From the IMG/VR virus record IMGVR_UViG_3300045988_098382: a stretch of DNA of 64,000 nucleotides. One strand, written 5' to 3'. The notes beneath the pieces were generated by a model that saw only the letters and a list, made by a program, of their open reading frames with translations, was not told the origin of the DNA and made no database searches. Below, piece after piece: positions 1 to 53,332 of the stretch (position 1 is its first letter; every line of letters begins with the position of its first letter). Position numbers and translations under genes: made by a program. This DNA comes from a virus.

Positions 1-343
1 GTATATAGTTCTATCTCTAATAGCCCCATGCCTAGTTATTTGGATATAATGTTTACGACAATATGGGGTTCCCTCAAAAGAAGCCATTTTTAAATCTCCA
101 CAAATACTACATTTTTCTAAAGGCTTTTTGTGTTTTCTTTTAGAAGTATCGGTGATTTTACCATATTTATTTAATTGGTCATAGTGTTTTTCACAAACTA
201 TATAATCATTGAATCTTCTAAGTTTTCCTTCTCCTTTAGTACTTCCGCATACTTCACAGACACATTCATCTGGTATTCTTTTTCTTACTCTTTTTTCTTT
301 TATTAAATTTCTTACTTCTAAAATGTCTAATTTTTGTTCCATA
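1..343 (-). CDS. Partial (N-terminal) Zn-finger homing-endonuclease-like protein; the gene continues beyond the window start
   Basis: ATG at 343..341 on minus. Translation MEQKLDILEVRNLIKEKRV...CEVCG...CEKHY...CSICG...CRKHY has two CxxC..CxKHY zinc-finger repeats typical of HNH/NUMOD-type phage endonucleases. No stop before the window edge. Confidence 0.4.
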
Positions 344-600
344 AACTATAATTTTTATATTTACTGTTATAGAACAACTATAGACCCTCATCCTTGGGAA
401 TCAAAATTATTTTGTATATTATATTATTAACGGAGAAAATTCTTCGATTTTCTCTCTCTATGTTACCATAGAGTTCGGACTATTGCATATTTTAAATAAA
501 TTTATTTAAAATTCTCTTTATTTAGTCTCTCAGGCTGCCCATAATTGTAATAATTATTGCTTGCCCCTCGTTGTCCTTAATTTAAGGAGTTTCGAGTCAA

Positions 601-2370
601 TTAAAAGAGATTTATAGTACCCACACGTCTAGGCACTTGTTCAGTATTAAATTGGGCTATTTTAGTTTTATGTTTCTTATTCTGCTCTTTTATAGTACTA
701 AATATTAATCTACAGAATGTCTTATAATAAATATTATTATTACATTCCATTCCTAAGTATTCGGCAGCTTGATTTAAACCATTAATTCCAATAGTTAAAT
801 ACTGCTTATCAAGATTAATAAAACCGGCATCATAAGCAGCATATAAATGATGGTCTTTACACCAATGCATTAAGTCATTATAAGCATACTGATACAAATA
901 AACTCTTTCAAGAATATTTTCTATATATTTCTTAATTCCTTCTTGGAAGTCTTTATGTGTAATCCAATCTACTGGGAAACAACATTTATTGGTATTAATA
1001 TCAATATGGTCTCTATAATCAGACCAAGTATGTTGCCAATCTTGAATAATTCTGTTTAAATTAAGAGTGATGACATTCTTACTACCAGTCATTACACCTA
1101 TTTGACCATTAGTAGTATTAAATGTATTTTCTTGTACTGCATTTTGTAAACGACAACATGAACTTAAACTATCTACACTACGAGACAAATAAGTAAAGAA
1201 AGAATTTCCTTGAGCATATTCATTGCATATAAAATGGAAAGTATCTAAATCTTTAAAATTACCTTCCTTATCTGTTAAGCAAGCATAACTACATACAGGG
1301 AATGTTAAAATACATTTTAATCTTTCTTGGTTTAACCAATGTAAATAACGTCTTTGTAACCAATTAGTAGAATTCCATTCTGGCTTTGTTCCATCTGGAA
1401 ATACAAATTCTCCAAACATACCTTCAAAGAAATATTTATCAAAGAATGAAAAATTTGTAAATGGAGATTGCATTCCTCTAGCTCCTGCTATTTGATTAAT
1501 GGAATAAGTTACCTGTTGAAAATACTGATCAATTTGACTACCAATAGTTTTTTGTTTTATACAATAGTCTGTAGTTATTTTTACACTTGGTTTGAGATAA
1601 TAATTATTTCCCCATTCTTTTCTACAGAAATAATCCATATACATCAGAAACTCAGGAGTAGCTACTGCTCCTTTAATTTCAGAGGCTAATGCAAAGTTTA
1701 GATTTACATAAATACCACAGAATGAATCAAGATTCTTTGGAACGGCTGATTTACCTCCTAATTTTTCTAATCCAGATAACAAGAAAGGATACATAGAAGC
1801 TGCCATACAATATGGTTCTCCTACTTGAGAAGATGAATCATGAGGATACAAAATAGTTTTAAAATCATTCCTCATAACTTTTATATTAAAGTTAGGATCT
1901 CTCTTCTTTACAAAACTTTCCCACCATTCTGTATTAGTAAGTTTATTATCGACTTTATGTATTTCAGCGTTTAATACTCCAATGCCTTTAGTCCCTACAT
2001 TACTATTATCATCAATAGTAGCATTAGCAGTATTGTCAGACTTTACAAAATTATGAATAAATTCAATATCCCTAGTAGCATGATTTCTAATATCTTCACG
2101 TTCTTTACGATATAGAATATATTTTTTAGCTACGTCGTGGTATCCTAAATCCATTAAGAGTTCTTCAATTTGGTCTTGAATATCCTCAATAGATTGATCT
2201 TCAGTTTCTACTACAGAATTAGTTATCTCAGTAACTGCTCTGTAAGTATCTTCGTCCATTGTTTTACTAAAATTTTGGGTAATTCCAAAAGCTTTTAGTA
2301 CAGCATCTCTAATTTTGTTTCTGTTAAATTCTTCTTTAATTCCGTCTCTCTTTATTACCATAAATAACAT
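601..2370 (-). CDS. nrdD: Anaerobic ribonucleoside-triphosphate reductase (class III RNR, NrdD) with N-terminal ATP-cone. It appears to lack the C-terminal glycyl-radical motif.
   Basis: N-terminal VIKRDGIKEEFNRNKI ATP-cone. Motifs align to T4 NrdD: YPHDSS (like HVHDID), MQSPFTNFSF (like GQTPFVTITF), NVITLNLNRI (like LGVVTLNLPRI). Ends ...PRRVG-TINLF* exactly where RRxCGY is expected. Confidence 0.8.
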   Translation of the reverse strand: MLFMVIKRDGIKEEFNRNKIRDAVLKAFGITQNFSKTMDEDTYRAVTEITNSVVETEDQSIEDIQDQIEELLMDLGYHDVAKKYILYRKEREDIRNHATRDIEFIHNFVKSDNTANATIDDNSNVGTKGIGVLNAEIHKVDNKLTNTEWWESFVKKRDPNFNIKVMRNDFKTILYPHDSSSQVGEPYCMAASMYPFLLSGLEKLGGKSAVPKNLDSFCGIYVNLNFALASEIKGAVATPEFLMYMDYFCRKEWGNNYYLKPSVKITTDYCIKQKTIGSQIDQYFQQVTYSINQIAGARGMQSPFTNFSFFDKYFFEGMFGEFVFPDGTKPEWNSTNWLQRRYLHWLNQERLKCILTFPVCSYACLTDKEGNFKDLDTFHFICNEYAQGNSFFTYLSRSVDSLSSCCRLQNAVQENTFNTTNGQIGVMTGSKNVITLNLNRIIQDWQHTWSDYRDHIDINTNKCCFPVDWITHKDFQEGIKKYIENILERVYLYQYAYNDLMHWCKDHHLYAAYDAGFINLDKQYLTIGINGLNQAAEYLGMECNNNIYYKTFCRLIFSTIKEQNKKHKTKIAQFNTEQVPRRVGTINLF

Positions 2371-2467
2371 TTATAAATTAACATTTTAAATCATCTACGA
2401 AATAAGCACTATAATACTAGTACTGAACTAATAATATAGTGCTTATATAGTTATTTCAAAATATTAT

Positions 2468-3262
2468 TTACAAAGTTAAAATGCTGTTTACTAATAAAGT
2501 TTTTTCAACCTGATTCATAATATCCTTTTTCATAGAATCAGTTATAATTTGAGTGAATGCATTATATACAGTAAACATATTTGCGTTATCATCTGATATA
2601 AGATACGGGCTATCTTTTTTATCAAACAATAATTTATAAGCATCAATAGGAGTTGATGTAGCTAATTTTACTTTACCAAAACCATTATCAACAGATTCAG
2701 ACATACAATTACGAATCCATCTACCCAAATGTTCATTTACAAAACTTTTATTGGTATAGTCAAAATCTGTTTCTGCAAAACGTCTGAGAGTGACTCCTAT
2801 CTCTGTAGTTTGCTCCACAAGTCTTGTAATTGGTTTAAAATTAATTGGAGTCTCTGGCTCTATTTCATTAACTACTAAACTATCTGGATTAAATACACAA
2901 AGATTAGTACATGCAGAATTCAGAGCACCTGAATACATTTTTACAACAGCTTTTCTAGTGTCTAGACCATATACCATACCAATTACTTGCTGATGATTAG
3001 CATATTGATATTCATTTGGTAATACTGCTTCTAACCATACTCTATTAAAAGTTAAATCAGCAGTATCTATATCACCATTTTTATTATAAGTAATTTGATC
3101 AGGTAATTTTACATGTACTCTAATATCAGAAGTTAATTTTTGAACTCTTTCTAGAAAAGGCTCAATATATCCTCTAGTAGGAAGATAATCTTTACCTTTA
3201 ATACTAGTAGCTTTTCCTTCTAATACTTCTTCTAAAGTAAATTCAGTTGGCATTCTATCCAT
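2468..3262 (-). CDS. Hypothetical protein
   Basis: 264-aa ORF, co-oriented and tightly packed with neighbours. No recognisable motif. Confidence 0.5.
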   Translation of the reverse strand: MDRMPTEFTLEEVLEGKATSIKGKDYLPTRGYIEPFLERVQKLTSDIRVHVKLPDQITYNKNGDIDTADLTFNRVWLEAVLPNEYQYANHQQVIGMVYGLDTRKAVVKMYSGALNSACTNLCVFNPDSLVVNEIEPETPINFKPITRLVEQTTEIGVTLRRFAETDFDYTNKSFVNEHLGRWIRNCMSESVDNGFGKVKLATSTPIDAYKLLFDKKDSPYLISDDNANMFTVYNAFTQIITDSMKKDIMNQVEKTLLVNSILTL

Positions 3263-3472
3263 TGTATGTGAAAAACATTATGTTATCAATAATTTCTTTA
3301 TCTAATAATTTTTGTACTAAATTATGAGGAGTATCTTCCGCATAATTAACTTTATTTATATCTACACTAATAATATATATCCACTTACTCCCGTTATATA
3401 ATATTTGCCCACAGGGATATGAATTTTTATAGCAGATAAGTAGTGTTTTGTTATCTTTAGTAATGTCATTAG

Positions 3473-4093
3473 TTACCATCTTAATGTAGCGAGAAATTCT
3501 TCATCAGATACTTCTTCAAAGTCTCCGTCCCCATAAATAACATCTGAGATATTATATTTTACTATTTTAAACTCTGGCTTGCCATGGCTATGCCAATATT
3601 CTGTAACATGTTTTGCATTACAATTAGGACTAGGACCTAATGCAATACTACAAGAAAATTTATTAGTTTCATAGCAATGTCCTTTATAAAAGTTTTGACA
3701 TTTCTTTATATAGTCAATAATAGTATTAACTTCTCCTGGGCAAGTAAGAACTTCTTTTAGTGGGAGAACTTTTTTATAATCTCTATAAGCAGGTTTATCA
3801 GGAGTAGCTTCTTTATAGTCATCTTCTACGCCTCCTTCTAAGAGTTGCTTAATTAATATTTCAAAAGTATCATCCCAAGTATCATTAATACCATATGCAT
3901 TCATATAAGTGTTTCTTATATAATTAAAATTATCTTGAGATAAATAATGTCTGGCATATAAAGGATCTTTCTCACTATCTTTAAATCCATTCTTAATAAG
4001 CTCATCCAAATCTATAGAAGGCTGAGCCCATCTATACATTTCAACAAAACACTTATGTAAAGCTTCCTTTAAAACGTCTTCTCTGCTAATCAT
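3473..4093 (-). CDS. Hypothetical protein
   Basis: 206-aa ORF. ATGA-type overlap with the upstream gene. Confidence 0.5.
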   Translation of the reverse strand: MISREDVLKEALHKCFVEMYRWAQPSIDLDELIKNGFKDSEKDPLYARHYLSQDNFNYIRNTYMNAYGINDTWDDTFEILIKQLLEGGVEDDYKEATPDKPAYRDYKKVLPLKEVLTCPGEVNTIIDYIKKCQNFYKGHCYETNKFSCSIALGPSPNCNAKHVTEYWHSHGKPEFKIVKYNISDVIYGDGDFEEVSDEEFLATLRW

Positions 4094-4370
4094 TGTCGTT
4101 AGTATAAAATTCTAATAATCTAAAATTATCTGCTATATGTTTAGTATCTATTAATTCGGTAATTAATTCTAATAATGTATCTTTAAATGTATCAAATTGA
4201 GCATTATCTATATTGTCGCAAAAATACCACATTTCAGTATCTGAACAATATGAAATTCTTCCAACAGCCATACCTTCTTTATAAGCGATAATTATACCTT
4301 TATAATTACCAGTAATAGCTGCTAAATCTATAGTAGTATCACTACTTTTAGGAATATTAATATATTTCAT
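4086..4370 (-). CDS. Hypothetical protein, tandem paralog 1
   Basis: 94 aa. Shares I.LP.TSD..ID..AI...GII.AYK..P.G.I.Y.DD..EW.Y.D.I with the adjacent ORF. Confidence 0.5.
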   Translation of the reverse strand: MKYINIPKSSDTTIDLAAITGNYKGIIIAYKEGMAVGRISYCSDTEMWYFCDNIDNAQFDTFKDTLLELITELIDTKHIADNFRLLEFYTNDND

Positions 4371-4636
4371 TGTCCAAAATCGACTAATTTAAAACTATCA
4401 GCATAATTACTTGATATTACGTTTCTTAATAAATATAATAAATTTTCATCTCGTTTATAACTACAATTTATAGTAATATCATCTAAGTATACCCACTCAT
4501 TATTGTCATCATCATATCCAATAAATCCTATTGGTTTATTACCTTTGTATGCTAAGATAATACCTTCAGTATCTGTATCTATAGCAGAGATGTCTATAGA
4601 TTTATCAGATGTTTCTGGAAGTTTTATGTCTCTCAT
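4367..4636 (-). CDS. Hypothetical protein, tandem paralog 2
   Basis: 89 aa. Paralogous to 4086..4370. 4-nt overlap. Confidence 0.5.
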   Translation of the reverse strand: MRDIKLPETSDKSIDISAIDTDTEGIILAYKGNKPIGFIGYDDDNNEWVYLDDITINCSYKRDENLLYLLRNVISSNYADSFKLVDFGQ

Positions 4637-6162
4637 TAATTATTTCCTTTAATAGTTCCCATCAAAATATCTTTATCTTTTACGATAGTATAATTAATAC
4701 TCCATTTAGTATGTCCAAAATTAGCTGTAATATAATTACTACTACCATACATACTACCTACTGAAATATAATCAAACTGTTTACCAGTAGTATAAGCATA
4801 ATTATGTAAATCACCTTTTATTACATAAATATGAGGACTACATATACCTTTTTCTGCTATATAATTAGCAAAGAATAATTCAGTCTGAGGATTTAAAGTA
4901 AGAGGAAGTTGTCTAGTCTGAGAATTATTATCTTTACCATGAGCATATAGGAATTGATGATCTCCAATGATAAAATTATCAATAGGATAGTTACTAATAT
5001 AACTCTTAACATTATATTTAGTTAAATATGCAGCTAATAGTTTTTGATTTAACCATTCAAAATCCCCACCATGATTAGATTCTCCTATAGAGAGATAATT
5101 AAAATCTTTACTTTTTACTTTTACTGTAAGAGTAGCAAAGAATTCCATCATACACTCTATAAATGCTTCACTAATTTCTTTATTATCAAGAATCTCAGGA
5201 AGTTCATGACCTCCTCTAGTAGTTTCTTTATTAAATCCATCAATAGAATCTCCAAGATTAACTACATATACAGAATGATATTCTTGTCCTATAAAAGATT
5301 CCACAATTCTAGATAATCTAGATTTAATTTCTGGAACATCATAAGAAGGTAACTGTACAAAACTACTATACTTAGCATTATAAGCTCCGATATGTAAATC
5401 AGATAGCCATATAATTAAATCAGGATATTTTGCTTCTTTATTATTAATATTTACTGGAAGTTCTTTATAATCCTTTACTGTATTTTTAATAGTAGTTTCT
5501 ATAAGTTCCTTATTTAAAGACTTAGAAGTTTCCTTAGTTAATTTAGTAACTAAAGCTCTTAAATCCTTTACTTCATCTTTCTCTATTCTTTTTAAGAAAT
5601 CATTCTCTTTTTCTCTAAGATGCATTTCTTTTAATTCATCCTCAGTATATTCTTCATACATATGAGGAGCAAATGGAGAAGATGCTTTAGTAATATTAAA
5701 AGCTCGTAAAATTCTTTTAAAGTCAATAAGAGAATAGTCTGGGAAATATCTGCTGACAATCTGCTGGGTTAAACCAGAACCGTAATAGGTATACATTCTA
5801 TATACACTATTCATTTCATTTCTAGTAAAGACTCCTGTGATTGCGGGCTTATTTCTTCTGAAAATCTCAAACTTATATCCAGTAATTTTACCAGTCTCTT
5901 CGTCTCTTATTTCCCAAGTATTAGAAGCATCATCTGTATCTTTCTTTACTTCTTTTTTCTTAGTATTCTTTAGTCTGTCATATAATTCCAATATCTTCTT
6001 ATCATCTTCATCTTTATTTTCCTTCTTTCTAAGATTTCTTATTGTCATATATACAGTATTTATGTTTTTTCCTGATATAGTACACTGAGCTTTTAAAGAA
6101 CGATTATTATTAATTGCATCATTAAAGAACTTAATATAAGAAGATTTTGTTGCTTGTTTCAT
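4636..6162 (-). CDS. Calcineurin-like metallophosphoesterase (Mre11/SbcD-like fold) with a basic N-terminal extension
   Basis: Motifs LSDLHIG (DxH), NLGDSIDG (GDxxD) and GESNHGG (GNH) in order. Confidence 0.65.
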   Translation of the reverse strand: MKQATKSSYIKFFNDAINNNRSLKAQCTISGKNINTVYMTIRNLRKKENKDEDDKKILELYDRLKNTKKKEVKKDTDDASNTWEIRDEETGKITGYKFEIFRRNKPAITGVFTRNEMNSVYRMYTYYGSGLTQQIVSRYFPDYSLIDFKRILRAFNITKASSPFAPHMYEEYTEDELKEMHLREKENDFLKRIEKDEVKDLRALVTKLTKETSKSLNKELIETTIKNTVKDYKELPVNINNKEAKYPDLIIWLSDLHIGAYNAKYSSFVQLPSYDVPEIKSRLSRIVESFIGQEYHSVYVVNLGDSIDGFNKETTRGGHELPEILDNKEISEAFIECMMEFFATLTVKVKSKDFNYLSIGESNHGGDFEWLNQKLLAAYLTKYNVKSYISNYPIDNFIIGDHQFLYAHGKDNNSQTRQLPLTLNPQTELFFANYIAEKGICSPHIYVIKGDLHNYAYTTGKQFDYISVGSMYGSSNYITANFGHTKWSINYTIVKDKDILMGTIKGNN

Positions 6163-6240
6163 ACTTTTTTAAAAATTAGATAGCTGTTACGCCTTTATAA
6201 ATAAAAGTATCTAGTAAAATAAAGGTATCTAAATTAAAAA

Positions 6241-6275
6241 AGGCAGATACTCTCGCGAGCACCTGCCTTACTTCT
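6241..6275 (-). terminator. Rho-independent terminator
   Basis: AAGGCAGGUGCUCGCGAGAGUAUCUGCCUU hairpin followed by UUUU on the minus strand. Confidence 0.6.
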
Positions 6276-6293
6276 AAAAGTTATGGGATAAAA

Positions 6294-6974
6294 TTAAAAT
6301 TCCAAACCAAAGAACATATAGCGACCATTCTTAGTACTCTTAGATGGAGTATAAGTTACAGTAGCTACTACTGGGTCAGAACCAATAGACTCCTTACCCT
6401 GAACGATATCGATCTGACCCTTAAAGCCCTTCTTAATAAGCTCCTTAGCCATTTCCTTAGCCGCAGTCTTAGTAGGACGAATAACCTTTGTATCTGGCTC
6501 AACACGACCAGTATCGTTACCATCCTTATCAAGAATTGGCTCGCCAGCCTTCTCGTTCTTTACACGCTCAGACTTCAAAGTCTTCAGTACTTCCTTTGTA
6601 TCGTGGTCTACCAAATCAAACTTTTTCTGAGTATCACGCTTACCCTCAGTCTTAATATCAACAACCTTCCAAGGACGCTCACGTGTACTTACAACAGCGC
6701 TAGAAAGAGTTACAATGAAACCACTACCAGGAGCATTCTTAGTCTTTTTCTTCAAATACTCCAGCTTAAATTCCTTCTCATCATTAGAAGTTACTTTAGC
6801 ATTTCTCTCATGGAACTTCTTCCATGCCTGTGTTGCATCACCATTAATATGGAAATTCTCTTTCTCTACCTGTGCTACTGCTGCTTCCTTTGTTTCTGCA
6901 CTTACTTCAAAACTCTTAAAATTAAAAATTTCACTCATTTTCAAAAATATATTAACATTAATTCTTATTACCAA
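6294..6974 (-). CDS. Hypothetical Lys-rich protein with GC-enriched codon usage, probably highly expressed. Likely true start at 6938 (MSEIFNF...).
   Basis: Local GC clearly above background. Upstream -33 TTTG / -7 TATTTTTG-like element. Followed by a strong hairpin + T-run terminator at 6241-6275. Confidence 0.55.
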   Translation of the reverse strand: MVIRINVNIFLKMSEIFNFKSFEVSAETKEAAVAQVEKENFHINGDATQAWKKFHERNAKVTSNDEKEFKLEYLKKKTKNAPGSGFIVTLSSAVVSTRERPWKVVDIKTEGKRDTQKKFDLVDHDTKEVLKTLKSERVKNEKAGEPILDKDGNDTGRVEPDTKVIRPTKTAAKEMAKELIKKGFKGQIDIVQGKESIGSDPVVATVTYTPSKSTKNGRYMFFGLEF

Positions 6975-6985
6975 ATCATCTGCGA
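6939..6985 (-). promoter_or_regulatory. Bacteroidota-type sigma-A promoter (-33 TTTG / -7 TAnnTTTG) immediately upstream of the GC-rich gene
   Basis: Minus-strand reading: gaTTTGgtaataagaattaatgttaaTATTTTTGaaaATG. Confidence 0.35.
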
Positions 6986-7066
6986 TGTTTTTTCTTTATC
7001 TTTGTAATGCTAATATAATCTATATTTTTTGCCTCCAAAAAGAAAATTATAAAAAAATTAATTTTT

Positions 7067-7426
7067 TTAGAATGGAAGAAATTTCCCCATTAATTCTCTT
7101 ATTTTTGTTGGCATATCTTTTGGTTGCACGCCAAATGTTGGAAAATCGGTACATCCATATGAAAAATCTTCAGTGATGATAGCAATAGCTTGTATTGTAT
7201 CTTCATCAAGACCTGTTTTTTCTGCTAATTTAGCAGTTACTTCATAATAAGTAACTCCAGGTTTTTTCTTTTTCATAGAATTTACCATATATCCAAGTAA
7301 CGATATAAGTGCAAATTTTAAATTTATACTTTCCCCTAAAGACCCTAAACTAAAGTATTTACGATATAAATCGGAAAGTTTAGTATAATCAGGTCTCTTG
7401 AGTAATTCCGAATCCCTCATAACCAT
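7067..7426 (-). CDS. Hypothetical protein
   Basis: 119-aa ORF. Confidence 0.45.
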   Translation of the reverse strand: MVMRDSELLKRPDYTKLSDLYRKYFSLGSLGESINLKFALISLLGYMVNSMKKKKPGVTYYEVTAKLAEKTGLDEDTIQAIAIITEDFSYGCTDFPTFGVQPKDMPTKIRELMGKFLPF

Positions 7427-8435
7427 GCATACAATAGAATGCTACTAATTTAAGAAGGTGAGTAAACTCTTTAAATCCTTTATTAAAAAGTTCTCTAGTC
7501 ATAGGAACTACTTTAGTATTAAAATTTGGAATAGTTTCTACTACTAAGAAATTACTTCTAATTTTAGGATTCTCAATGTTATAATTCTTCTTAGCAGCCA
7601 TAGTTAATAACCAACTATATAAAGCCATTTCTCTATAATAGTGATAGTCAATAAGAGCTCCTTTAGCAAAGTTATTTATTAAATCTCCTGTGGTTTTTAA
7701 ATCATTTACAGTGATTATTCCTTCTTCTTTATCTATACTATAATTATCAAGTTTAGACTTAATTTTTAGTATAAAAGGTTTATGCCCTGGAGCCTCCACT
7801 AAAACATCTATAAGGAAAGCTATTTCATTACCAATAATTGGTTGTTCTAGTAATCCTTCAGGATTTAATAGAGATTGAACTTGTGTATCACTATTTAAAG
7901 CTTCTAAACATATTTTTAGTTTAGCGTGATTTTTAGGGTCTGTAAATATTGGTGTTCTAGTATCATTATTTTCTTCTTCAAAAGCTTTTCTATCACACCA
8001 ATATTGAGCACAGTCTACTAACACTTTTTCCATCTTTTTATCCGACATTTTATCTTTATAATAATCACACTTATCAGATGCTTCTAATATAATATCGTTA
8101 GTAACATTGATACCTTGTGTTTTCTTATAAATATAATCTGCCATTGATCCCATTTTAGCAGTAGGTCTGCTAACGTCTGTTAGAAAAAAGTCATTAGGCT
8201 GTAAAACTAAAGTATGTAACCAACTACCAAACTTTAAGCTAGCGGTGTTTAACTTAGTCTTACCCCAATTATCGAAGAACTCTGTTGGAGAACCATCTTG
8301 ATCTGGATTTATTTTAGATAATCTAGAGTTTGAGATATAATTATTATACTTTTCTGAGAAATAAGTATCATCATCAATATCTTCAACTCTTAAAGTCTCT
8401 ATTAGAGGTTTAATAGAAATTTGACTTAATTTCAC
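7389..8435 (-). CDS. Putative PD-(D/E)xK family nuclease (YqaJ/Cas4/RecB-like)
   Basis: ITVNDLKTT (D-x-K) followed by conserved Y/H/Y residues. 348 aa. Confidence 0.45.
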   Translation of the reverse strand: MKLSQISIKPLIETLRVEDIDDDTYFSEKYNNYISNSRLSKINPDQDGSPTEFFDNWGKTKLNTASLKFGSWLHTLVLQPNDFFLTDVSRPTAKMGSMADYIYKKTQGINVTNDIILEASDKCDYYKDKMSDKKMEKVLVDCAQYWCDRKAFEEENNDTRTPIFTDPKNHAKLKICLEALNSDTQVQSLLNPEGLLEQPIIGNEIAFLIDVLVEAPGHKPFILKIKSKLDNYSIDKEEGIITVNDLKTTGDLINNFAKGALIDYHYYREMALYSWLLTMAAKKNYNIENPKIRSNFLVVETIPNFNTKVVPMTRELFNKGFKEFTHLLKLVAFYCMHGYEGFGITQET

Positions 8436-8946
8436 GTAAATAATTATTAAAGTCTTCCGACTCTTTTATACATTCATACCCATATTCTATCTCTTCTTTA
8501 TCTAAACTATAAATCTTACCATAAGGACCCCATTTTTCATTAGATTCAGAAGCTATTAATAAGCAAGGTAATCCTGCTAGATTCATCTGAATAAAATTAC
8601 TAATAGAATCATCAATGAAAATATCAACTCTACCTTTTATATATCGAGCTTTATTAGCACGCTGGCATAAGACTTGATAAATAGGTTTACTAGGATAACC
8701 ATTATTCTTTAGCCATGTTTTACTATAGTCTTTATTACATACTCTTTTAGTACAATATAATTCAGGTATAAAGTTTATTTTATTTTTTACTGGAAGATTT
8801 ACCCACCATTCTCTGTCTTTTATTAAAACTTGTTGTACATTTTTTGTTATTTCTCCATCAGACTTAGGATATCCAAATCTTTTTAAATATGGATTCATAA
8901 ACTCATTTAATGTATCATCTAAATCTAAACCAATTCTTAATTTCAT
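8410..8946 (-). CDS. 5'(3')-deoxyribonucleotidase (HAD superfamily, NT5C-like)
   Basis: N-terminal MKLRIGLDLDDTL HAD motif I. Size and downstream motifs typical of dNMP nucleotidases. Confidence 0.75.
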   Translation of the reverse strand: MKLRIGLDLDDTLNEFMNPYLKRFGYPKSDGEITKNVQQVLIKDREWWVNLPVKNKINFIPELYCTKRVCNKDYSKTWLKNNGYPSKPIYQVLCQRANKARYIKGRVDIFIDDSISNFIQMNLAGLPCLLIASESNEKWGPYGKIYSLDKEEIEYGYECIKESEDFNNYLREIKSNFY

Positions 8947-9188
8947 AGATTAAATAATTCCTCAATATCTCTTATATATGTTACCCCAATACCTTTCTTA
9001 GCCAATTCAGCTCTGATATTTATCCAGCTATCATTGTTATCAAGAATAGCATATGTATCATCGTCTAAATTTAAGTACTTATCAACTTCTTCTTTAGCCT
9101 TTTCAACGGCTTCTTCATATGAAGATGCTGTTAACTTATGAAGTTTATTTTTATTACTCTGACAAATTGCAAAAATATAATTATTCAT
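8943..9188 (-). CDS. Hypothetical protein
   Basis: 81-aa ORF. Confidence 0.4.
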   Translation of the reverse strand: MNNYIFAICQSNKNKLHKLTASSYEEAVEKAKEEVDKYLNLDDDTYAILDNNDSWINIRAELAKKGIGVTYIRDIEELFNL

Positions 9189-9373
9189 TTGGTATTGTTA
9201 TATATAATTATCATTATAATAATAAATAATATCATCATAGTGATTGGAAGTGATAAAAATATCATCACTGCTAATGTTATCCAACTCCATAATAATATTC
9301 CAGAAATCTTAAGTAAAATTAATATTATACTTATTATAAAATCTATTACTATTAAGGTTAATAGCTCTCTCAT
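9185..9373 (-). CDS. Small hydrophobic membrane protein
   Basis: 62 aa, two predicted TM segments. Confidence 0.35.
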   Translation of the reverse strand: MRELLTLIVIDFIISIILILLKISGILLWSWITLAVMIFLSLPITMMILFIIIMIIIYNNTK

Positions 9374-9879
9374 ATTAAATTATTACTTTTAGAATAACAT
9401 TCTAATAAAGTATAAAAGAAATCCATAGGAACCATTGCTATTGCTCCTGGACTAACACTACCTTCTGTCGGAGCTTTCTTCCAACATAGTACAAATGACT
9501 TATCCTTATATGGACAAGCATCTTCTATCTTAAAATATGCTGGAGTATTAGCAGTATGTTTTGCTTGAATATTTATAGGTAATTTTCCAGACCTATCAAT
9601 TATATCAACTTTATTATTATCTGTAAACTTACTTTCTCCTCTAGCGCTTACACATTCAGTATACCCCATATCTCTAAGATGATGAATTATATCTGCTTCC
9701 CATGCACTTCCTTTATTTCTAGATTTTTTAGCTTGATAACTCTTCTTAGTATGACTATCTATCCATTCATATAAAGTGCCATCAGCCATTTTTCCAGATT
9801 TATTACATCTAATTTTAAGAGCTGCTTGACTTATTTTAGTTTTTTCAGAGCATTCCTCTATAGATGTATAATCGTGCAC
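9370..9879 (-). CDS. Putative Holliday-junction resolvase-like nuclease (Hjc/RecU-like PD-(D/E)xK)
   Basis: KGSAWEADIIHHLRDMGY...RGESKF...KVDIID...IQAKH resembles the Hjc core (KGSxFEREL..L...GF...R..GS...DLVA..EVK). Confidence 0.35.
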   Translation of the reverse strand: MHDYTSIEECSEKTKISQAALKIRCNKSGKMADGTLYEWIDSHTKKSYQAKKSRNKGSAWEADIIHHLRDMGYTECVSARGESKFTDNNKVDIIDRSGKLPINIQAKHTANTPAYFKIEDACPYKDKSFVLCWKKAPTEGSVSPGAIAMVPMDFFYTLLECYSKSNNLI

Positions 9880-9925
9880 ATCGCCATTCTTATATGTTAT
9901 TCTAATAGCAGTATTCAGATTCTAA

Positions 9926-10936
9926 TTACTTTTTGACATAGTTACTTAATTTTTTTATATAATACTTTATAAATTTTAAAGTATTCTGTCGACCATATTT
10001 TTTATAAAAATCACTTATATCTTTTACTTTGAATTTATGAGGTATAAAGAAATAAAGTAATTCTGGATGATTTCTTCTTATTTTAGCCATATTAAACATT
10101 CCAGGTCTATCATTATCATAAAAAGTTACTATATAAGTAAATCTTTCTTTTAGATCATTTAACATGTTTTCAGATAACCATTGTGTTTCACTATTTGGAG
10201 CACAGGCTGTTACACCTAAACCTTTTAAACACATAGTATCTTTCATACTTTTAGTTATGACTAATAAATTACCTTTTTTAGGTAACTGACTATAACCCTG
10301 AACTTTTTTAGAGGGCCAATTTGTTAGAAATCTATATTCCTTACGTTTAGGATAATAAATTCTCCACAATTCTTTACCTTTCATTGTTCCTCCATAATAT
10401 CCGAAGATAAAGTTATCTTTGGTCTTTATAGTTTGAATATTACCATTTAAAAATACAGTACGACAAGAATATACTTTATATTTATTTAGTAATTCTAAAG
10501 AAACTCCTTGTTTATTCCACCATTTTAATTCATCTTCTGAGAAATCTTTTATTTCTACTCGTATATCTGCTGGCTCGTTTGTTTTAACAAAAGAAGTGCT
10601 TGATTGTATTACAGAATGATAATTATTTTGTCCTTTTAATAAGCCAAAATCTTTAGCTATAATGTCTAATGCTTGATGGTATTTACAAGCATATTTAGTC
10701 ATAACTACAGATATAAAGTTTCCATAAAAACTCCCATTAAAATCATGAAATATAAGTTCTCCTTTAGAGTTACGAAAAAAGGAAGCCGTAGGATTTTTAT
10801 CTTTACGTAAAGGATTACAAATTAATTTTTTTGAAACTTTTACGCCAAGATAATACTCCATATAGGCTTCCTCTGTGTTATATTTAAGTAAGTAGTCCTT
10901 AGTAATATCTGGTTTATAAGAAAAATCTAATTCCAT
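9926..10936 (-). CDS. DnaG-like DNA primase (TOPRIM domain)
   Basis: Degenerate CHC2-like zinc motif CNPLRKDKNPTASF. TOPRIM E...DxD: LVITKSMKDTMCL ... VTFYDNDRPG. Confidence 0.6.
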   Translation of the reverse strand: MELDFSYKPDITKDYLLKYNTEEAYMEYYLGVKVSKKLICNPLRKDKNPTASFFRNSKGELIFHDFNGSFYGNFISVVMTKYACKYHQALDIIAKDFGLLKGQNNYHSVIQSSTSFVKTNEPADIRVEIKDFSEDELKWWNKQGVSLELLNKYKVYSCRTVFLNGNIQTIKTKDNFIFGYYGGTMKGKELWRIYYPKRKEYRFLTNWPSKKVQGYSQLPKKGNLLVITKSMKDTMCLKGLGVTACAPNSETQWLSENMLNDLKERFTYIVTFYDNDRPGMFNMAKIRRNHPELLYFFIPHKFKVKDISDFYKKYGRQNTLKFIKYYIKKLSNYVKK

Positions 10937-10959
10937 AAAAACTACTTACTTTATAATTA

Positions 10960-11730
10960 CTACATATCTGCCAGCATAGCGTCGAAGTCTTCATCTTGAG
11001 CCTCCTTGCCTTCAGTAGAGTCGATAGATTTAGCCTCTTCTGAATCAGCTGCTGGCACAGGAGCAGTAGGCTTACGCTTCTCCATATCCTCTTTCTGTTT
11101 AATCTCATAACTAGAGAATGACAATTTATCTTCTTCTAAGCTAGCAAAATTATCACGGATATAGAACTGCCCATCACTATTAATAGCTCCAATATCAGGA
11201 ATTTTGGCAAATACATTACCAGTTTCCTTCATAATTCCTTTTTCATCCTTTTTCTTTTCCTTACGACCACTAAGTTTTAAATAAAAGTTTTTATTCATAC
11301 AATACTTAGTCAATACTGCCTGGAAAAGCTGCATGAATTGGTCAGTACTCTTACAAGCAGGAGCTTTAGTTACAAACAATTCTTTAGCCTTATCACCTCC
11401 TACTACTGTTATAATATGCAGCATAAAACCCTTAAGCTGCTCAAATGCTGAAGGAAGTACATATGGGAACTCTACACCTTTAGAATCTTTTCTCTTACCC
11501 TCATATCTTTTAGCAGAATTTTCATTAGGATAAAATAATGACTCTTGATAAGTTCCTTGTTCTCCTTCAAAATGAAGTACTAGAGATTTCCAAGTTGTAT
11601 CAGGGTCTTGCTTACCTTTACCCTCTTTAACTTCTACACTTTTTAACTGAACGAGATAAATTCCATAAGGACGAAGACCTTTCTTACTTGTAGGATTAAT
11701 ATCACCAAGACCACCAAAATTTAAATTCAT
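10960..11730 (-). CDS. Putative ssDNA-binding protein (acidic C-terminal tail)
   Basis: C-terminus ...EAQDEDFDAMLADM resembles the acidic SSB tail. GC-enriched codons. Lies in the replication cluster. Confidence 0.4.
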   Translation of the reverse strand: MNLNFGGLGDINPTSKKGLRPYGIYLVQLKSVEVKEGKGKQDPDTTWKSLVLHFEGEQGTYQESLFYPNENSAKRYEGKRKDSKGVEFPYVLPSAFEQLKGFMLHIITVVGGDKAKELFVTKAPACKSTDQFMQLFQAVLTKYCMNKNFYLKLSGRKEKKKDEKGIMKETGNVFAKIPDIGAINSDGQFYIRDNFASLEEDKLSFSSYEIKQKEDMEKRKPTAPVPAADSEEAKSIDSTEGKEAQDEDFDAMLADM

Positions 11731-11742
11731 ATTGCTATATTA

Positions 11743-12348
11743 TTAAAGATTATCGAAATTAAAATCATTATCTGAGATTTCTGTATCATCTGCGTTGCCG
11801 TCAATAAGACTAGCCATTTCGTCATCTAATTCATCTTCTGATGCAATATCCTCTGCTTCAGGAACTACATCTTCTTTAATCTCAGGCTCTCGATTACCTG
11901 TTAATATAAACAATCCATCAATTTTAGGATGTGGAGTGAAAGTAAACTCATTACCATGCTCAGCAAGGTTCTGGTTATTTTTTCCTCTATATGAAACTGC
12001 ATTCTTCTGAGTTAATTTATTACCTGACTGCGTACCAAATGTTTCAGCAGCTCCGATAACTAAGCACTCCTTTTTATTAAGCTTCTGTTGTTTAATATCT
12101 ACTTTATCTCCTGGTTCTACACCAAGAGCCTCAACAGCAGCCTTATTAAGAATATACTTATTTTCCTCAAGAATTAATAGTGGATTAGGATTTGTATCAT
12201 CTACTTCTGAGTCTTTCTTTTTAGAAGAAGACTTACGAGTAGACGGCTTCTTTACAGAATCATCCTTCAATTCACGTGTATCAGTAAAAATTTCTCCAGT
12301 TTCTTCATTAAGCCACTCGGACTTAATTGTCATTTTAATTAGCTTCAT
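11743..12348 (-). CDS. Hypothetical protein with acidic C-terminus
   Basis: 201-aa ORF ending in a D/E-rich tail (DNDFNFDNL). Confidence 0.45.
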   Translation of the reverse strand: MKLIKMTIKSEWLNEETGEIFTDTRELKDDSVKKPSTRKSSSKKKDSEVDDTNPNPLLILEENKYILNKAAVEALGVEPGDKVDIKQQKLNKKECLVIGAAETFGTQSGNKLTQKNAVSYRGKNNQNLAEHGNEFTFTPHPKIDGLFILTGNREPEIKEDVVPEAEDIASEDELDDEMASLIDGNADDTEISDNDFNFDNL

Positions 12349-13090
12349 TTAAAATATTGTCATCATTATTGGTTTCATTATTATCATCTGCGATTTCTTC
12401 TTCTTCCTCACCATATTCAAAGTTATGGATAGTATCTAAAACCTTCTGCATATTAGGTTCAATCAGTTTATCTTTAAAACATCCATCAACACTACGACAA
12501 GTATCGTTACCATTGGTTTTAGTTCTAAAGAAATAACTAATATTGCCCTCATCATCAACCTGGCGTTCAGTATATAAAATATAAGAAAATAAACCGTCAA
12601 TATTTACAGTTCTATCCAACATTTTACCACTAGAGTATAACTGCCAATGTTCGTCGAGGTCAGTACCAGCATTAATAATATGACTAATGAATACTACATT
12701 AAGATCTTCACGCAATTCACTAGCTTCCATGATTAAATCATAGTAATTTTTAGCAAATATAACGTGTTTATCCCAACCCTTTTCAAGGGCAGAATCCATT
12801 ATATTATTTGAAAGACAATAATTAGCATCATCTACAACTACTGTCTTAATATCAGAACGTAATTTATCAATAATTTTCAACCACTTACCAATAGTAGTAT
12901 AATCATTAGATACAAGCCAATTTCCAACTGGCTTCTTATTTATAACTTCAGCTTTCTTGTATTTACGTCTAAATCCAGGAATTTGAAGCTGCTTGTTAGT
13001 ACAACTAATAATAAATGTTGATTTATAATCTAAATAACGCAAAGAAGTGCTTTTTCCGGTACCACTCAAACCTGCTAAACCAATAATCAT
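12335..13090 (-). CDS. P-loop NTPase (possible Sak4/RecA-like recombination ATPase)
   Basis: Walker A GLAGLSGTGKST at the N-terminus. Acidic tail. Next to helicase and primase. Confidence 0.5.
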   Translation of the reverse strand: MIIGLAGLSGTGKSTSLRYLDYKSTFIISCTNKQLQIPGFRRKYKKAEVINKKPVGNWLVSNDYTTIGKWLKIIDKLRSDIKTVVVDDANYCLSNNIMDSALEKGWDKHVIFAKNYYDLIMEASELREDLNVVFISHIINAGTDLDEHWQLYSSGKMLDRTVNIDGLFSYILYTERQVDDEGNISYFFRTKTNGNDTCRSVDGCFKDKLIEPNMQKVLDTIHNFEYGEEEEEIADDNNETNNDDNILNEAN

Positions 13091-14169
13091 AAACTATAGT
13101 CTAATTTATTTTTCACTTTTTCATCTTTATCTTCATTCTTTATTATATTATCTGTTGAACTGTTATTTGTAGCTCGATATCTAGAATAATCAAAGATTTC
13201 TTCTGGCTTAGGCATTTCCATCCACTTATTTACTGCTCCGTCAAAGAAACAGCAATCAGCTACTTGATTTTCTCCATATCTTGACTTTAGTACAAGAATA
13301 CTTCGAAACCTATAACCCATTTCTTTAACTTGATAACCTCTATAAGTTGTTCTTTTATCAACTTGAGGATTATATACAGCTAAAATAATTTCAGAGTTCT
13401 CTGAAACAGTGGATGTTTCCTTAATATCCTCCACCATTGGCTCCATGAAAGCTTCATTCTTTTTTCTTTCCATGTTAGCAACTGCTCTATTGGATTGCAT
13501 AACAATAATTGGAGATAATCCTGTTTTATTTCTAATGATAACTAATTTATTAGTATAATCATCAATCTCTCCTTTTCTGTTCCTTCCATTAGATGGCTGG
13601 ATCAATCCAACATGGTCAGTTACTGAAAGTATTACTTTTTCAGGGTCTTTTGGAATATATTTATTCTCTATAAATTCTCCTTCTTTTTTAAGCTCTTCCA
13701 TTGTAACTTTTATGAGCTTATCAGAATTAAAAGAGCCTTCGTATATAGTTAGTACTTTATATACTTTTTCTAGCCAACCATATCCTAGTTGTACATACTC
13801 ATATAAATCATCAGGTAAAATATAATCTTTACCTATAGATAATATTTGTTTAGCAGTTACAACAATATGATAGGTATCATATAAATAGGTACTTAATAAT
13901 TTAGCTATAATAAAATCTTCTTTCATTTCAAGAGCAAAGAAAATAATTTTTAATTTATTATCTTCTAAATGCTCTTTTAAAGGAGCATATATATAAGAAT
14001 ATAATACACATGAACTTTTACCCTGTCCTGAACTCGCAAATAAGAGAGTCATGGTACTTTTAGTAATACCTCCTATTAATTCTTCCAATTTAGGAAGACC
14101 CATACTAAATCCTTGATTAAATCCTTGTCTACCAAGCTCTATCGAACGTTTAAAACTTTCTAAACTCAC
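13087..14169 (-). CDS. DnaB-like replicative helicase (RecA-fold C-terminal domain only)
   Basis: GLPKLEELIGGI...LLFASSGQGKSS Walker A in a DnaB C-terminal-like arrangement. Confidence 0.65.
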   Translation of the reverse strand: MSLESFKRSIELGRQGFNQGFSMGLPKLEELIGGITKSTMTLLFASSGQGKSSCVLYSYIYAPLKEHLEDNKLKIIFFALEMKEDFIIAKLLSTYLYDTYHIVVTAKQILSIGKDYILPDDLYEYVQLGYGWLEKVYKVLTIYEGSFNSDKLIKVTMEELKKEGEFIENKYIPKDPEKVILSVTDHVGLIQPSNGRNRKGEIDDYTNKLVIIRNKTGLSPIIVMQSNRAVANMERKKNEAFMEPMVEDIKETSTVSENSEIILAVYNPQVDKRTTYRGYQVKEMGYRFRSILVLKSRYGENQVADCCFFDGAVNKWMEMPKPEEIFDYSRYRATNNSSTDNIIKNEDKDEKVKNKLDYSL

Positions 14170-14777
14170 AGAGTGGTGATTGAATTATAATTCATACCTG
14201 AATCTCCATTCTTTAAAGCTTCAAGGTCTTCCCATTTTTCATCTACAATAAATGTAGCTAAGCTATAATTAATAATACCATTATCAGTATTAGCTTCCCA
14301 ATCTAGTAAATCAATAATCTTTTTATGAAGTTCTTCATTCCAATGAATTTTCTTCCCATAAGTTCTATAAGCATCTTCAAGACTATTAAACTTTTTAGAA
14401 ACACCTAGCATACTAGTTAAGCATCCATTAATATTTCTAAATCTAGGATAATGTTCTCTAAGTTCTTTCCCCATTTCAAAGGAACTCTTAGCTAAACATT
14501 TTAAGAAGTTTTTATTAAATGGTATTTCTTCAGGAACTAGTTTCATTCCTGGAATAATTTTATAACTTTTAAGAATAAGACCTTTATCTTGTAAAGATTT
14601 AAGTACATCTATAAAACTTCCTACATATTTTTTATCAATAGCTAAATACCTACGAAGATAATCTTCTGAATAATCTTCTATATAAGCATTTATAGCTTTA
14701 ACAACAAATAATTCAGTAGGAGTAATATTATATTTTTCTAAAATTGTTATTTCTTCATCAATGTTTAAATCAAACAT
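14166..14777 (-). CDS. Hypothetical protein
   Basis: 203-aa ORF. Confidence 0.45.
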   Translation of the reverse strand: MFDLNIDEEITILEKYNITPTELFVVKAINAYIEDYSEDYLRRYLAIDKKYVGSFIDVLKSLQDKGLILKSYKIIPGMKLVPEEIPFNKNFLKCLAKSSFEMGKELREHYPRFRNINGCLTSMLGVSKKFNSLEDAYRTYGKKIHWNEELHKKIIDLLDWEANTDNGIINYSLATFIVDEKWEDLEALKNGDSGMNYNSITTL

Positions 14778-14855
14778 ACAGTAATTCGGATAATTAAAAA
14801 TCTTCCATACTGTAATTAAGTTAATCTCTTTTCAGAGCGATATTAATACATAGAT

Positions 14856-16145
14856 TCAGAATCTAAAATCAAATTTAGGAACTATCTTTTCACCTGGAGT
14901 AAAGTCTTTACCTTGTAACACTTTATCCAATTCTGATTCGTCTATAGTTATAAAAGAATCTCCTTTATGAGAATCATAAAACCACTTAGTTTCTTGAGTC
15001 CTATTTAATACTATATTGAATATCTCTGCTGTCTTACCTTTTTCAAAGCGTATTGACCTTCCTCTTCGTTGACAAGCTCTAGTAGTTGAACTATCTAATC
15101 CAAATATAATAGCTACAGAAAGACCTTTCACATCAAGTCCTTCATCAGCTTTTTTTACTGTAGATAATAAAGTTATTTTTCCAGAGTTAAAATCTTCAAT
15201 AGCTGTAGCACTTCTTTTCTTAGAAGTTCTACTAGAATATACAGTAGCATTAGGAATTTTTTCTGCCATTTTAATATTATTAGCAAAAGTTATTATTTTT
15301 TTATCCTTCCTAGCTTCTATAATTTTCTTTACTATTTCAATTTTCTTTGGATGATTATTTATGAAAGCTTTTTTCTCATGCATAGTAGCCCAAAATCTGA
15401 TAGCATGATAATTTATATTTTGTAGTACTTCAGATTTTTTGTTAGGGTCACTACACATAGAATCTCTTAGGAGCAGTTTATTTCGCCAACCCATAGGACC
15501 AGCTAATTTATTAACTAACTCCCAAGAGAATCCGAAGAATTCAAAATGAGAAATGAATTCTTTATTTATTTTTTCATATTCTTCTAAATCATCAACATTT
15601 ACTAAGACTAGATATTCTTTATATGGGCTAACCCAACCATTTGCAAGACAAGTATTAATATCAATAGTATCAATTACTGGACAATATTGTGCTAATATTT
15701 TATCTCTACCATCAAGACGCTCAAAAGTAGCTGTAAGACCTAAGATAAATTGGTATTTTACTACCTCAAATAATCTTACAAAAGTCTCAGCTGCATATCT
15801 ATGCGCCTCATCTAATACTAAAAGATCATATTTGGCAGGATGTTTTATTACAGTGTTTATTATTTGTACATCGCAACTTAATCCTAGCCCATTAGAATCT
15901 ATATGACCACACCATTGTTTTTGTAAAGTTTCTGTTGGTACAATTATTAGTACTCGATATTGTGGAAAGTGTTTTAGCACTGTTTTAATACAGTTTAGTC
16001 CTATTCTGCTCTTACCAAATCCAGTAGATGCAACTATTGTCCCTACACAACGATTTTTTATCCATTTTCTACGACATTCTTCTTGTCGTTCATCTCTAGT
16101 GATTTTATGAAATAATTCTCCCTCAATCAGAGAGTTTGTAGCCAT
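14856..16145 (-). CDS. SF2 DEAD/DEAH-box helicase (UvsW/RecG-like)
   Basis: Walker A ASTGFGKS, DEAH box LVLDEAHR, motif III GLTAT, motif VI QRRGRSIR. Confidence 0.75.
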   Translation of the reverse strand: MATNSLIEGELFHKITRDERQEECRRKWIKNRCVGTIVASTGFGKSRIGLNCIKTVLKHFPQYRVLIIVPTETLQKQWCGHIDSNGLGLSCDVQIINTVIKHPAKYDLLVLDEAHRYAAETFVRLFEVVKYQFILGLTATFERLDGRDKILAQYCPVIDTIDINTCLANGWVSPYKEYLVLVNVDDLEEYEKINKEFISHFEFFGFSWELVNKLAGPMGWRNKLLLRDSMCSDPNKKSEVLQNINYHAIRFWATMHEKKAFINNHPKKIEIVKKIIEARKDKKIITFANNIKMAEKIPNATVYSSRTSKKRSATAIEDFNSGKITLLSTVKKADEGLDVKGLSVAIIFGLDSSTTRACQRRGRSIRFEKGKTAEIFNIVLNRTQETKWFYDSHKGDSFITIDESELDKVLQGKDFTPGEKIVPKFDFRF

Positions 16146-17109
16146 TATATTTAGCTACTGCTTTGATTTGTTTAATACGCTTCTCCCACTCTGAAGCTTG
16201 CCATCTAACCTTATTTTCAAGATGAAGTAAAACTTTATCTCTTAAGGTTTCTAATTGTACTTTAGTCAGATCATTATAACGCTTATCATATTTATCCTTA
16301 CGGAATGTAAGCATTGCACTAAACTCTTTTAGAGTTAAGCCTTTTCTATCATCAATTTTTAAAACAAGACCTTTCTTGTCTTCAGGATTCTTAGGATCTC
16401 TCAGTTTAATATTTAGAAGTTCAGCAACTTGCTTAATTCTATCTACTAAACGACCATTCTCGTCTTTCTTATTTAATTCTAATAACTCAGAACGTGTAAA
16501 CCACAATCCAAGCTCAGTAATGAATGTAAGAGTAATATGTTTACGAATACATTTACCTAAAGCAGATAAACAAGCTTCTCTAACAATATACAATGGTAAT
16601 GAAGCAAACATAGTAAATGAATCTTCATCACTATTCATAATATCATTAAGAGTCCATTCTTTAAAGAGAGTCTCTGCAATAGCACTAGCATTTGTCTCTC
16701 CTTCGCCTCTTTCTGCATTATCTTTGGCAAACTGTTCTGCCTGAGAAGTAATCTGTTGATTAAGCATATTAAAGAAACTAGTTCTTACAATACCTTGTCT
16801 AGTACTACCTTCACCTGGATACAATAGCCAAATTAAGAACAACTCAGCATTGCATCGAGTTCTTTGGTCTTCAATCTGTTCCAACAAAACTCGTCGTCCA
16901 GGATTTTCATAGTTGTCACTATAAAGCATTGATTCACAATGTTTATATGCTTTACGTAATTCTTCTTCAGTCATATCTACCATTTTTATGGAAGACTGAA
17001 CGCGTTCACCATCTACAATTTTTCTGGAACCTTTCCAGAGAAATGTTTCTACATCATTATTCTTAGCTTCTAAAGCTTGATTGAGTTTATCACCTAAAAC
17101 TGTTGTCAT
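16123..17109 (-). CDS. Hypothetical protein
   Basis: 328-aa ORF. Confidence 0.45.
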   Translation of the reverse strand: MTTVLGDKLNQALEAKNNDVETFLWKGSRKIVDGERVQSSIKMVDMTEEELRKAYKHCESMLYSDNYENPGRRVLLEQIEDQRTRCNAELFLIWLLYPGEGSTRQGIVRTSFFNMLNQQITSQAEQFAKDNAERGEGETNASAIAETLFKEWTLNDIMNSDEDSFTMFASLPLYIVREACLSALGKCIRKHITLTFITELGLWFTRSELLELNKKDENGRLVDRIKQVAELLNIKLRDPKNPEDKKGLVLKIDDRKGLTLKEFSAMLTFRKDKYDKRYNDLTKVQLETLRDKVLLHLENKVRWQASEWEKRIKQIKAVAKYNGYKLSD

Positions 17110-34955: not shown

Positions 34956-35048
34956 AATTAACAGTTAAAATTAAACAAAAATCCCTGAACTATAATAATA
35001 GCCCAGGGATTAAAAACAAATAATAATAAAAACAGTTCTATGAACTAG

Positions 35049-43904: not shown

Positions 43905-43990
43905 GAATTTGTACGGTAGAAAGGATTCGAACCAATGACCTTCTCGAAATGACCTATTATAAAAAGAGATGCTCTAACCACTGAGCTACT
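43905..43990 (-). ncRNA. tRNA-like gene with perfect acceptor and D-arm but a 4-bp anticodon stem enclosing a 20-nt loop and a degenerate T-stem
   Basis: Acceptor ACGGUAG/CUACCGU. D GCUC-AGUGGUUA-GAGC. UCUC-(20 nt)-GAGA. T region UGGUUCGAAUCCUUU. Same architecture as 44426..44506. Confidence 0.35.
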
Positions 43991-44050
43991 ACCGTAAGTA
44001 CTAGTTTATATCGGAAAACTAGTAAAACGTTAACACATTATTATGGAAAC

Positions 44051-53323: not shown

Positions 53324-53332
53324 AGATAATAT

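Follow-up and report, generated by a model that had tools for sequence, protein, structure and literature searches.

Among the ribonucleotide reductase genes of phages, nrdD is the most often split (PMC3653736), and introns in this gene have already been reported in T4, crAss-like phages and jumbo gut phages. Yutin et al. 2021 (PMC7886860) describe Zeta crAss-like gut phages of 145-192 kb with dense group I introns and inteins and up to 14 introns, and a report on Jug jumbo gut phages (Sci Adv 2026, PMC12880540) describes nrdD as fragmented in 95 of 104 genomes, with RNA reads confirming splicing. Here, we analyzed an interrupted nrdD gene at one end of a viral DNA stretch of 64,000 nucleotides (nt), IMG/VR record IMGVR_UViG_3300045988_098382, hereafter called the window. 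A group I intron of 1252 nt very probably interrupts nrdD between codons 580 and 581, and positions 630 to 1 on the minus strand of the window would represent its 5′ half. Like the Zeta and Jug phages, the window comes from the human gut, lies on a contig of 174.6 kb, and carries an nrdD gene interrupted by an HNH gene and a compact group I ribozyme (about 200 nt); inteins also occur in the same gene, here in relatives of the window phage. This is a likeness and not an assignment to either group, and neither the insertion site nor the intron lineage found in the window is described in the consulted passages of PMC7886860 and PMC12880540.

The NrdD open reading frame (ORF) found in the window (2370..601, minus strand) encodes 589 amino acids ending in ...FNTEQVPRRVGTINLF before the stop codon, and comprises an ATP-cone domain and positions 30-414 of the 562 positions of the Pfam NRDD profile. 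In comparison with solved structures, the alignment of this ORF reaches its limit at 'FNIEQVPAEKAAV' in Thermotoga maritima NrdD (residues ~495-505 of 651), and the break in nrdD therefore lies inside the conserved EQVPAE motif, between P and A, after codon 580. The initial annotation was thus right in calling the gene truncated but misplaced the break, which it located at the glycyl-radical motif. This position is rejected by the T. maritima NrdD alignment: the radical glycine lies in RIIGY, at residue 709 of the joined protein, about 130 residues beyond the break, and about 150 C-terminal residues are absent from the window ORF. The PRRVG segment taken for the counterpart of RRxCGY differs from RVxG, and the residues RRVGTINLF are translated intron (window 630-604). 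The whole read-through stretch spans the P1 loop, the guide, J1/3 and the P3 5′ strand. A non-coding spacer does follow nrdD, as initially described, with a length of 258 nt (window 343-600) from the nrdD stop codon to the endonuclease start codon instead of about 170 nt.

The sequence beyond the window start could be read on a longer contig. Window positions 1-12370 match, with 0 mismatches, contig L001, a 174.6-kb human-gut metagenome contig (window position = 12371 - L001 position), on which exon 1 is followed by an HNH ORF, a 163-amino-acid NRDD ORF, a thioredoxin gene and an nrdG-like gene. The 163-amino-acid ORF (L001 12990-13481) covers positions 415-560 of the 562 of the NRDD profile, and the profile coverage of the two ORFs abuts at 414 and 415. 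Its translation begins M-AESASVKLY..., and both RIIGYL and the cysteines of the zinc ribbon are present. The search for an in-frame second exon, proposed in the initial annotation, was therefore successful: exon 2 starts 1252 nt downstream of exon 1, beyond the window start as anticipated, and its 162 codons supply RIIGY and the zinc ribbon rather than only a CGY-type motif. Joining ...GUGCCU (L001 11740) to GCAGAA... (12993) produces a protein of 742 amino acids that aligns with T. maritima NrdD without gaps across EQVPAE and RIIGYL/RIVGYL. The predicted ligated junction is ...ACTGAACAAGTGCCT joined to GCAGAAAGCGCTTC..., with TTTAATACTGAACAAGTGCCTGCAGAAAGCGCTTCAGTAAAAC as the junction-spanning sequence.

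An intronless allele fixes the exon boundaries exactly. In MT835492, a 96% identical phage, nrdD is uninterrupted at this position and reads ...GAACAAGTACCC followed directly by GCAGAAAGC..., encoding EQVPAESASV, with AATACTGAACAAGTACCCGCAGAAAGCGCTTCA as the putative intronless target of the endonuclease. The divergence between this gene and the window nrdD begins exactly after the last base of exon 1. Since MT835492 reads straight through, the insert is exactly 1252 nt long, follows a U and ends in G; its insertion phase is 0. These comparisons also bear on whether a mobile element simply disrupted nrdD and left a decaying pseudogene without function. The truncation of the annotated ORF and its 9-amino-acid tail unrelated to NrdD would fit such a loss, which we nevertheless regard as extremely improbable. 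Both exons are intact and in frame and retain SSCCRLQ, the zinc-ribbon cysteines and RIIGY, the thioredoxin and nrdG-like genes downstream are intact as well, and many diverged phages, at 35-65% amino-acid identity, have retained this arrangement, implying selection.

Group I covariance models, the check that had been suggested for this region, recognized the insert. When about 350 nt were given, Rfam RF00028 (Intron_gpI) matched window 456-640 on the minus strand at E = 1.2e-12; the score, 52.2 bits, exceeds the gathering cut-off of 50. No group I match came from wider scans with RF00028, whether over 3 kb (E<=10), 32 kb (E<=1) or all 64 kb (gathering threshold). A control with the T4 intron scored 105 bits, and the wide-scan negatives were a filter effect and not evidence of absence. 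A second covariance model, R1, was built from 37 relatives, leaving out the window sequence and its clade. R1 matched window 430-616 on the minus strand with 147.7 bits (E = 2e-33) and found no further copy in the 64-kb window; it also detected the T4 nrdD (sunY) intron, whose self-splicing is experimentally proven (43.7 bits, E = 1.7e-8). The aligned cores of 38 non-redundant relatives folded into P3, P4, P5, P6/P6a, P8, P9 and P9.1, to which P7 was added as a pseudoknot. In this alignment, paired cells reached 98.7%, compared to 39-48% when partners were slid, compensatory changes on both sides occurred at 27 of the 43 core pairs, and none of 500 shuffles reached the observed covariation values. 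P7 is invariant as GACUA/UAGUC, while the pair across its bulge covaries (AU 25, GC 12, CG 1). The RF00028 alignment pairs the same bases in P1 and P3-P9. Together with the intronless MT835492, both model matches support the group I intron carrying a homing-endonuclease gene that the initial annotation had suspected. Another kind of intervening element or an assembly chimera is almost certainly not the explanation. Inteins are known in the nrdD of relatives between SSCC and CRLQ (MT835492 and Desulfovibrio phage 7757), but the insert studied here is out of frame with the exons, has stop codons and has no Hint domain. Similarly, it shows neither group II features nor a reverse transcriptase, and a chimera is at odds with the recurrence of the insert in independent contigs from other samples (for example L068, which holds the full version) and with the exact identity of the window to L001.

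Table 1. Features of the interrupted nrdD locus in the window
Feature	Window position	Strand	Description
nrdD exon 1, codons 1-580	631..2370	-	ATP-cone and most of the NrdD barrel, end ...FNTEQVP
Read-through tail RRVGTINLF + TAA	601..630	-	First 30 nt of the intron, AGACGTGTGGGTACTATAAATCTCTTTTAA; not NrdD
P1 helix and 5′ splice site	616..637	-	Exon strand AGUGCCU 637-631, loop AGACGUGU 630-623, guide GGGUACU 622-616
Group I catalytic core	430..616	-	Covariance models R1 and RF00028, covariation
P3	604-610 with 513-519	-	Core pairing; P4-P6 also present
P7	523-529 with 477-482	-	GACUA/UAGUC, one base bulged
P8	489-512	-	Core helix
P9	456-473	-	Core helix
P9.1	433-454	-	Core helix
P9.2, 5′ arm	415..430	-	UUAAUAAUAUAAUAUA; inverted repeat, 100% complementary over 16 nt
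Untranslated leader in loop L9.2	343..414	-	Before the endonuclease start codon
Endonuclease gene, 5′ part (114 of 318 codons)	1..342	-	ORF start at 342, runs off the window

The features of the locus are listed in Table 1. The 5′ splice site lies between window positions 631 and 630, after the U of a U.G pair, and inspection by eye identified R- and S-like elements that pair as P7 (GACUA/UAGUC) as well as the terminal G. On the parent contig, the intron ends in ...GUAACAGAAUG directly followed by GCAGAA, with its terminal G (omega G) immediately before exon 2. The 3′ partner of P9.2 (L001 12906-12921, for a 5′ arm at 11941-11956) is located 949 nt downstream, beyond the window. The whole ribozyme core is placed 5′ of the endonuclease ORF, which the 16-base-pair (bp) P9.2 stem encloses in a 949-nt loop. 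No ORF or structure match was found in the leader at 343..414. According to the aligned core structures, P2 and P7.1/P7.2 are absent from the window core and from its intron family.

This anatomy is shared in part with the T4 nrdD (sunY) intron, which has the same host gene, a core 5′ of the endonuclease ORF, and a 3′ splice site about 1 kb away. Both introns lack P2 and connect P1 to P3 through a UAAA-type junction, and their P7′-P9 signatures are very similar (AUAGUCUGAACUGCAUGGUGACAUGCAG in T4 versus AUAGUCCGAACUCUAUGGUAACAUAGAG in the window). In contrast, P7.1/P7.2 are found in the T4 intron only. The insertion sites also differ, T4 being interrupted at about codon 180 of 605 and the window gene at codon 580 of 742; T4 codon 180 maps approximately to residue ~285 of the window NrdD in a weak protein alignment (E about 0.1). 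As the initial annotation had anticipated, the endonucleases belong to different families, namely, GIY-YIG for I-TevII of T4 and HNH_3 for the window. An assignment to a T4 sunY-type lineage and site was rejected, as both insertion site and endonuclease family differ. T4 sunY belongs to subgroup IA2, and the window family, despite its lack of P2 and P7.1/P7.2, resembles T4 sunY in J1/3 and P7′-P9.

Scanning viral contigs for the P7′-P9 signature returned 117 loci. Cellular genomes rarely contain it, with 7 loci in 185,579 species. nrdD was the host gene at 44 of 123 loci and contains two recurrent insertion sites, which follow residue 580 (site A) and residue ~596 (site B). A script recovered a P1 of 6-8 bp with U.G at the splice site in 52 of the 60 family members, its sequence tracking each exon. 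Among relatives, P10 covaries with the start of exon 2 (GCUGA/UCAGU, GGUG/CACU, GCGAA/UUCGU). In the nrdD insert of the Prevotella Lak megaphage, a core 83% identical to that of the window is located 16 codons downstream with a rewritten guide, GUCCAU, that pairs with AUGGAU. The intron is also polymorphic between close relatives: alleles with intron and endonuclease, with the intron alone, and without intron coexist among phages at least 95% identical, as expected for invasion, fixation, decay and loss. The endonuclease gene is missing from the intron in L069, L121 and L106 (~305 nt), and L030 (~356 nt) retains remnants of it. The nrdD genes of these endonuclease-less relatives are at least 95% identical, and their introns keep the same 3′ elements, both arms of P9.2 forming a short hairpin. 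In L099, P9.2 occurs in a compensatory version, UAAUACAUAAAAU/AUUUUAUGUAUUA.

In the site-A relatives L099 (2003-2335), L107 and L116, the U.G of P1 shifts the 5′ splice site one base later, after ACA CCG U, and a GCGAA/UUCGU P10 sets the 3′ site before GCGAA; the predicted ligated codon, UGC, encodes Cys at a position occupied by Ala or Gly in other NrdDs. The cultured Desulfovibrio/Nitratidesulfovibrio phage 7757 (L004; PV062637, OR395405) carries a homologous intron at the same site, after EVVP (3866-4790), with its own HNH_3 endonuclease gene of 217 amino acids, and its nrdD is adjoined by a TnpB/IS200-605-like ORF.

The gene order at this locus would also be compatible with genes in pieces, in which a free-standing endonuclease gene split nrdD and the polypeptides of 589 and 163 amino acids assemble without RNA splicing. 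Precedent exists in nrdA/mobE of Aeromonas phage Aeh1 (PMC3653736), where, as in the window, an HNH-type endonuclease gene divides a ribonucleotide reductase gene and the halves are annotated as separate ORFs. However, Aeh1 has no intron RNA and its halves are translated separately, whereas the endonuclease gene of the window is flanked by a complete group I core and by splice sites that are conserved. The 290 nt upstream of that gene form the covariation-supported group I core, which a simple endonuclease insertion would not bring along, and relatives keep the intron after loss of the endonuclease gene. Gene callers do report the 163-amino-acid ORF, starting ATG-GCA-GAA with GGAG 9 nt upstream of its ATG. 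A standalone glycyl-radical gene, the finding that the initial annotation had set against an intron, is thus present superficially, but the AUG of this ORF belongs to the intron, whose 3′ end, GUAACAGAAUG, is conserved. Across both insertion sites, 31 relatives share the terminus GUAACAGA(A/G)U(U)G; site-A relatives show UUG, GUG or AGG in place of AUG, and the terminal AUG of site-B introns does not share the frame of exon 2. As the in-frame start codon is not conserved, independent translation of exon 2 was largely rejected from this 3′-end comparison. The likely hosts, presumably Bacteroidales, make little use of Shine-Dalgarno sites, which also counts against separate translation of exon 2. 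We therefore consider assembly of two independently translated NrdD halves very unlikely.

A second use of the transcript is conceivable alongside splicing because the terminal AUG, which follows a GGAG, shares the frame of exon 2. Translation of unspliced RNA or of the endonuclease mRNA might also yield a free 163-amino-acid glycyl-radical and zinc-ribbon domain that could serve as a spare part for oxygen-damaged NrdD, by analogy with YfiD/GrcA for pyruvate formate-lyase. We see this as a long shot. Far more likely than such spare-part use is that the same intron lineage moved between nrdD sites 16 codons apart, with its guide rewritten and endonuclease genes swapped.

The endonuclease-like gene with zinc-finger motifs running off the window, as initially annotated, was recovered in full on L001 (12029-12985, 318 amino acids). 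Its 114 codons in the window encode two CxxC...CxxH zinc-finger-like motifs (C29/C32/C50/H53 and C78/C81/C95/H98). Beyond the window, Pfam identifies an HNH_3 domain (E = 9e-10, residues 183-226) and, weakly, AP2. The protein matches PHROG 99, HNH endonuclease (E = 1.5e-35), and its nearest solved structure is I-HmuI (1U3E, E = 2.7e-4, residues 134-239), the HNH endonuclease of the group I intron in the DNA-polymerase gene of Bacillus phage SPO1. The two systems thus share a phage group I intron with an HNH endonuclease but differ in host gene, and their sequence similarity is low. Compared to I-HmuI, the window endonuclease has two additional zinc-finger-like CCCH motifs in its N-terminal part and, toward the C terminus, a region resembling AP2. 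The last ~28 codons of the ORF overlap the 3′ arm of P9.2 and another hairpin, and the stop codon is located 7 nt before the 3′ splice site. The activity of this putative endonuclease and its presumed target are inferred, and homing into intronless nrdD has the indirect support of the three allele states coexisting in phages at least 95% identical.

In the mechanism that we propose, nrdD, the intron and the downstream genes would be carried together on one transcript. P1 would form between the guide and the last bases of exon 1, placing U.G at the splice site, and the compact core P3-P9.1, devoid of P2, would fold wholly upstream of the endonuclease ORF. The 16-bp P9.2 stem would then close a loop of ~950 nt around the endonuclease gene and bring the distant 3′ end, GUAACAGAAUG, near the core. 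Guanosine-initiated transesterification followed by attack after the terminal G would join ...GUGCCU to GCAGAA..., and the ligated product would encode a complete NrdD of 742 amino acids with the catalytic Cys loop, the zinc ribbon and the RIIGY radical site. Finally, the HNH_3 endonuclease might cut or nick the intronless nrdD of co-infecting phages, upon which the intron would be copied in (homing).

Several points weigh against this interpretation. Splicing itself is something we infer from sequence. The RF00028 score barely exceeds its threshold, and the match was missed in wider scans, appearing only when the query was reduced to about 350 nt. The window itself does not reach exon 2, the 3′ splice site or the HNH domain, all of which are known only from the identical parent contig. 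In addition, P10 of the window copy has only 3 bp (GCA/UGU), and an in-frame AUG with GGAG 9 nt upstream stands directly before exon 2, which would formally allow the C-terminal piece to be translated on its own.

Other interruptions were seen in the nrdD genes of relatives. An ORF-less, group-I-like insert of ~305 nt occurs exactly at the glycyl-radical codon pair, between RIIG and Y, in L002 (MT835492, ~7220-7526), L003 (Lak-B1, ~5068-5315), L068 and L121. It follows a U and ends in G, its removal restores GYLTKISNW, and it scores 40.6 bits with RF00028 (E = 3.7e-9), below the gathering score. This is the position that the initial annotation had imagined for the break, where the window nrdD is uninterrupted. 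Inteins interrupt nrdD between SLSSC and CRLQ in L002 (MT835492, ~5249-6300), L004 (phage 7757, ~2403-3350) and L003 (Lak-B1, 1468-2295, a mini form). They start with C and end in ...THN before C, and the larger ones contain LAGLIDADG-like motifs; the window nrdD has no intein. In Prevotella phage Lak-B1, nrdD (L003 500-5400) is divided into five or more coding segments, separated by several small ORFs of endonuclease-like type. The Lak-B1 copy of the window core is accompanied by a different endonuclease, a 95-amino-acid HNH-like ORF, and extra weak R1 matches were obtained at 1390-1482 and 3412-3514 (E about 5e-4).

Elsewhere in the window, 18 tRNA genes were found in all, including suppressor-type tRNAs at 43911-43995 (minus strand) and 53332-53405 (plus strand) with anticodons UUA (UAA) and CUA (UAG). 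No standard-code ORF of at least 250 amino acids is present between ~35 kb and 64 kb. These two observations suggest stop-codon reassignment in part of the genome, which PMC7886860 reports for some crAss-like phages. RF00023 (tmRNA) matched 35046-35377 (minus strand) with 48.1 bits against a gathering score of 47, while ARAGORN reports no tmRNA there. At 12335-17109 (minus strand), helicase-like ORFs cover PHROG profiles only in part, with positions 333-603 of 621 of a DnaB-like profile at 13087-14169 and positions 285-648 of 986 of a helicase profile at 14856-16145. These helicase-like genes, too, may be interrupted; with R1, no intron of the window family was detected in 12335-17109. A nicotinamide phosphoribosyltransferase gene, an auxiliary metabolic gene, lies at 22098-23651 (minus strand; PHROG 448, E = 9e-179).

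An intron in this gene will not surprise specialists, since no other ribonucleotide reductase gene of phages is known to be interrupted as often as nrdD. Its recognition nonetheless changes how the locus should be annotated: the 'NrdD fragments' of 589 and 163 amino acids and the HNH gene become one NrdD of 742 amino acids and a mobile intron, and reading them as a truncated or split NrdD enzyme would be mistaken. The cultured phage 7757 offers a usable experimental system for splicing. Taken together, the three allele states found in near-identical phages provide a natural series for the turnover of introns and endonucleases in gut phages, a series further extended by the presence of the same core at two sites with rewritten guides.

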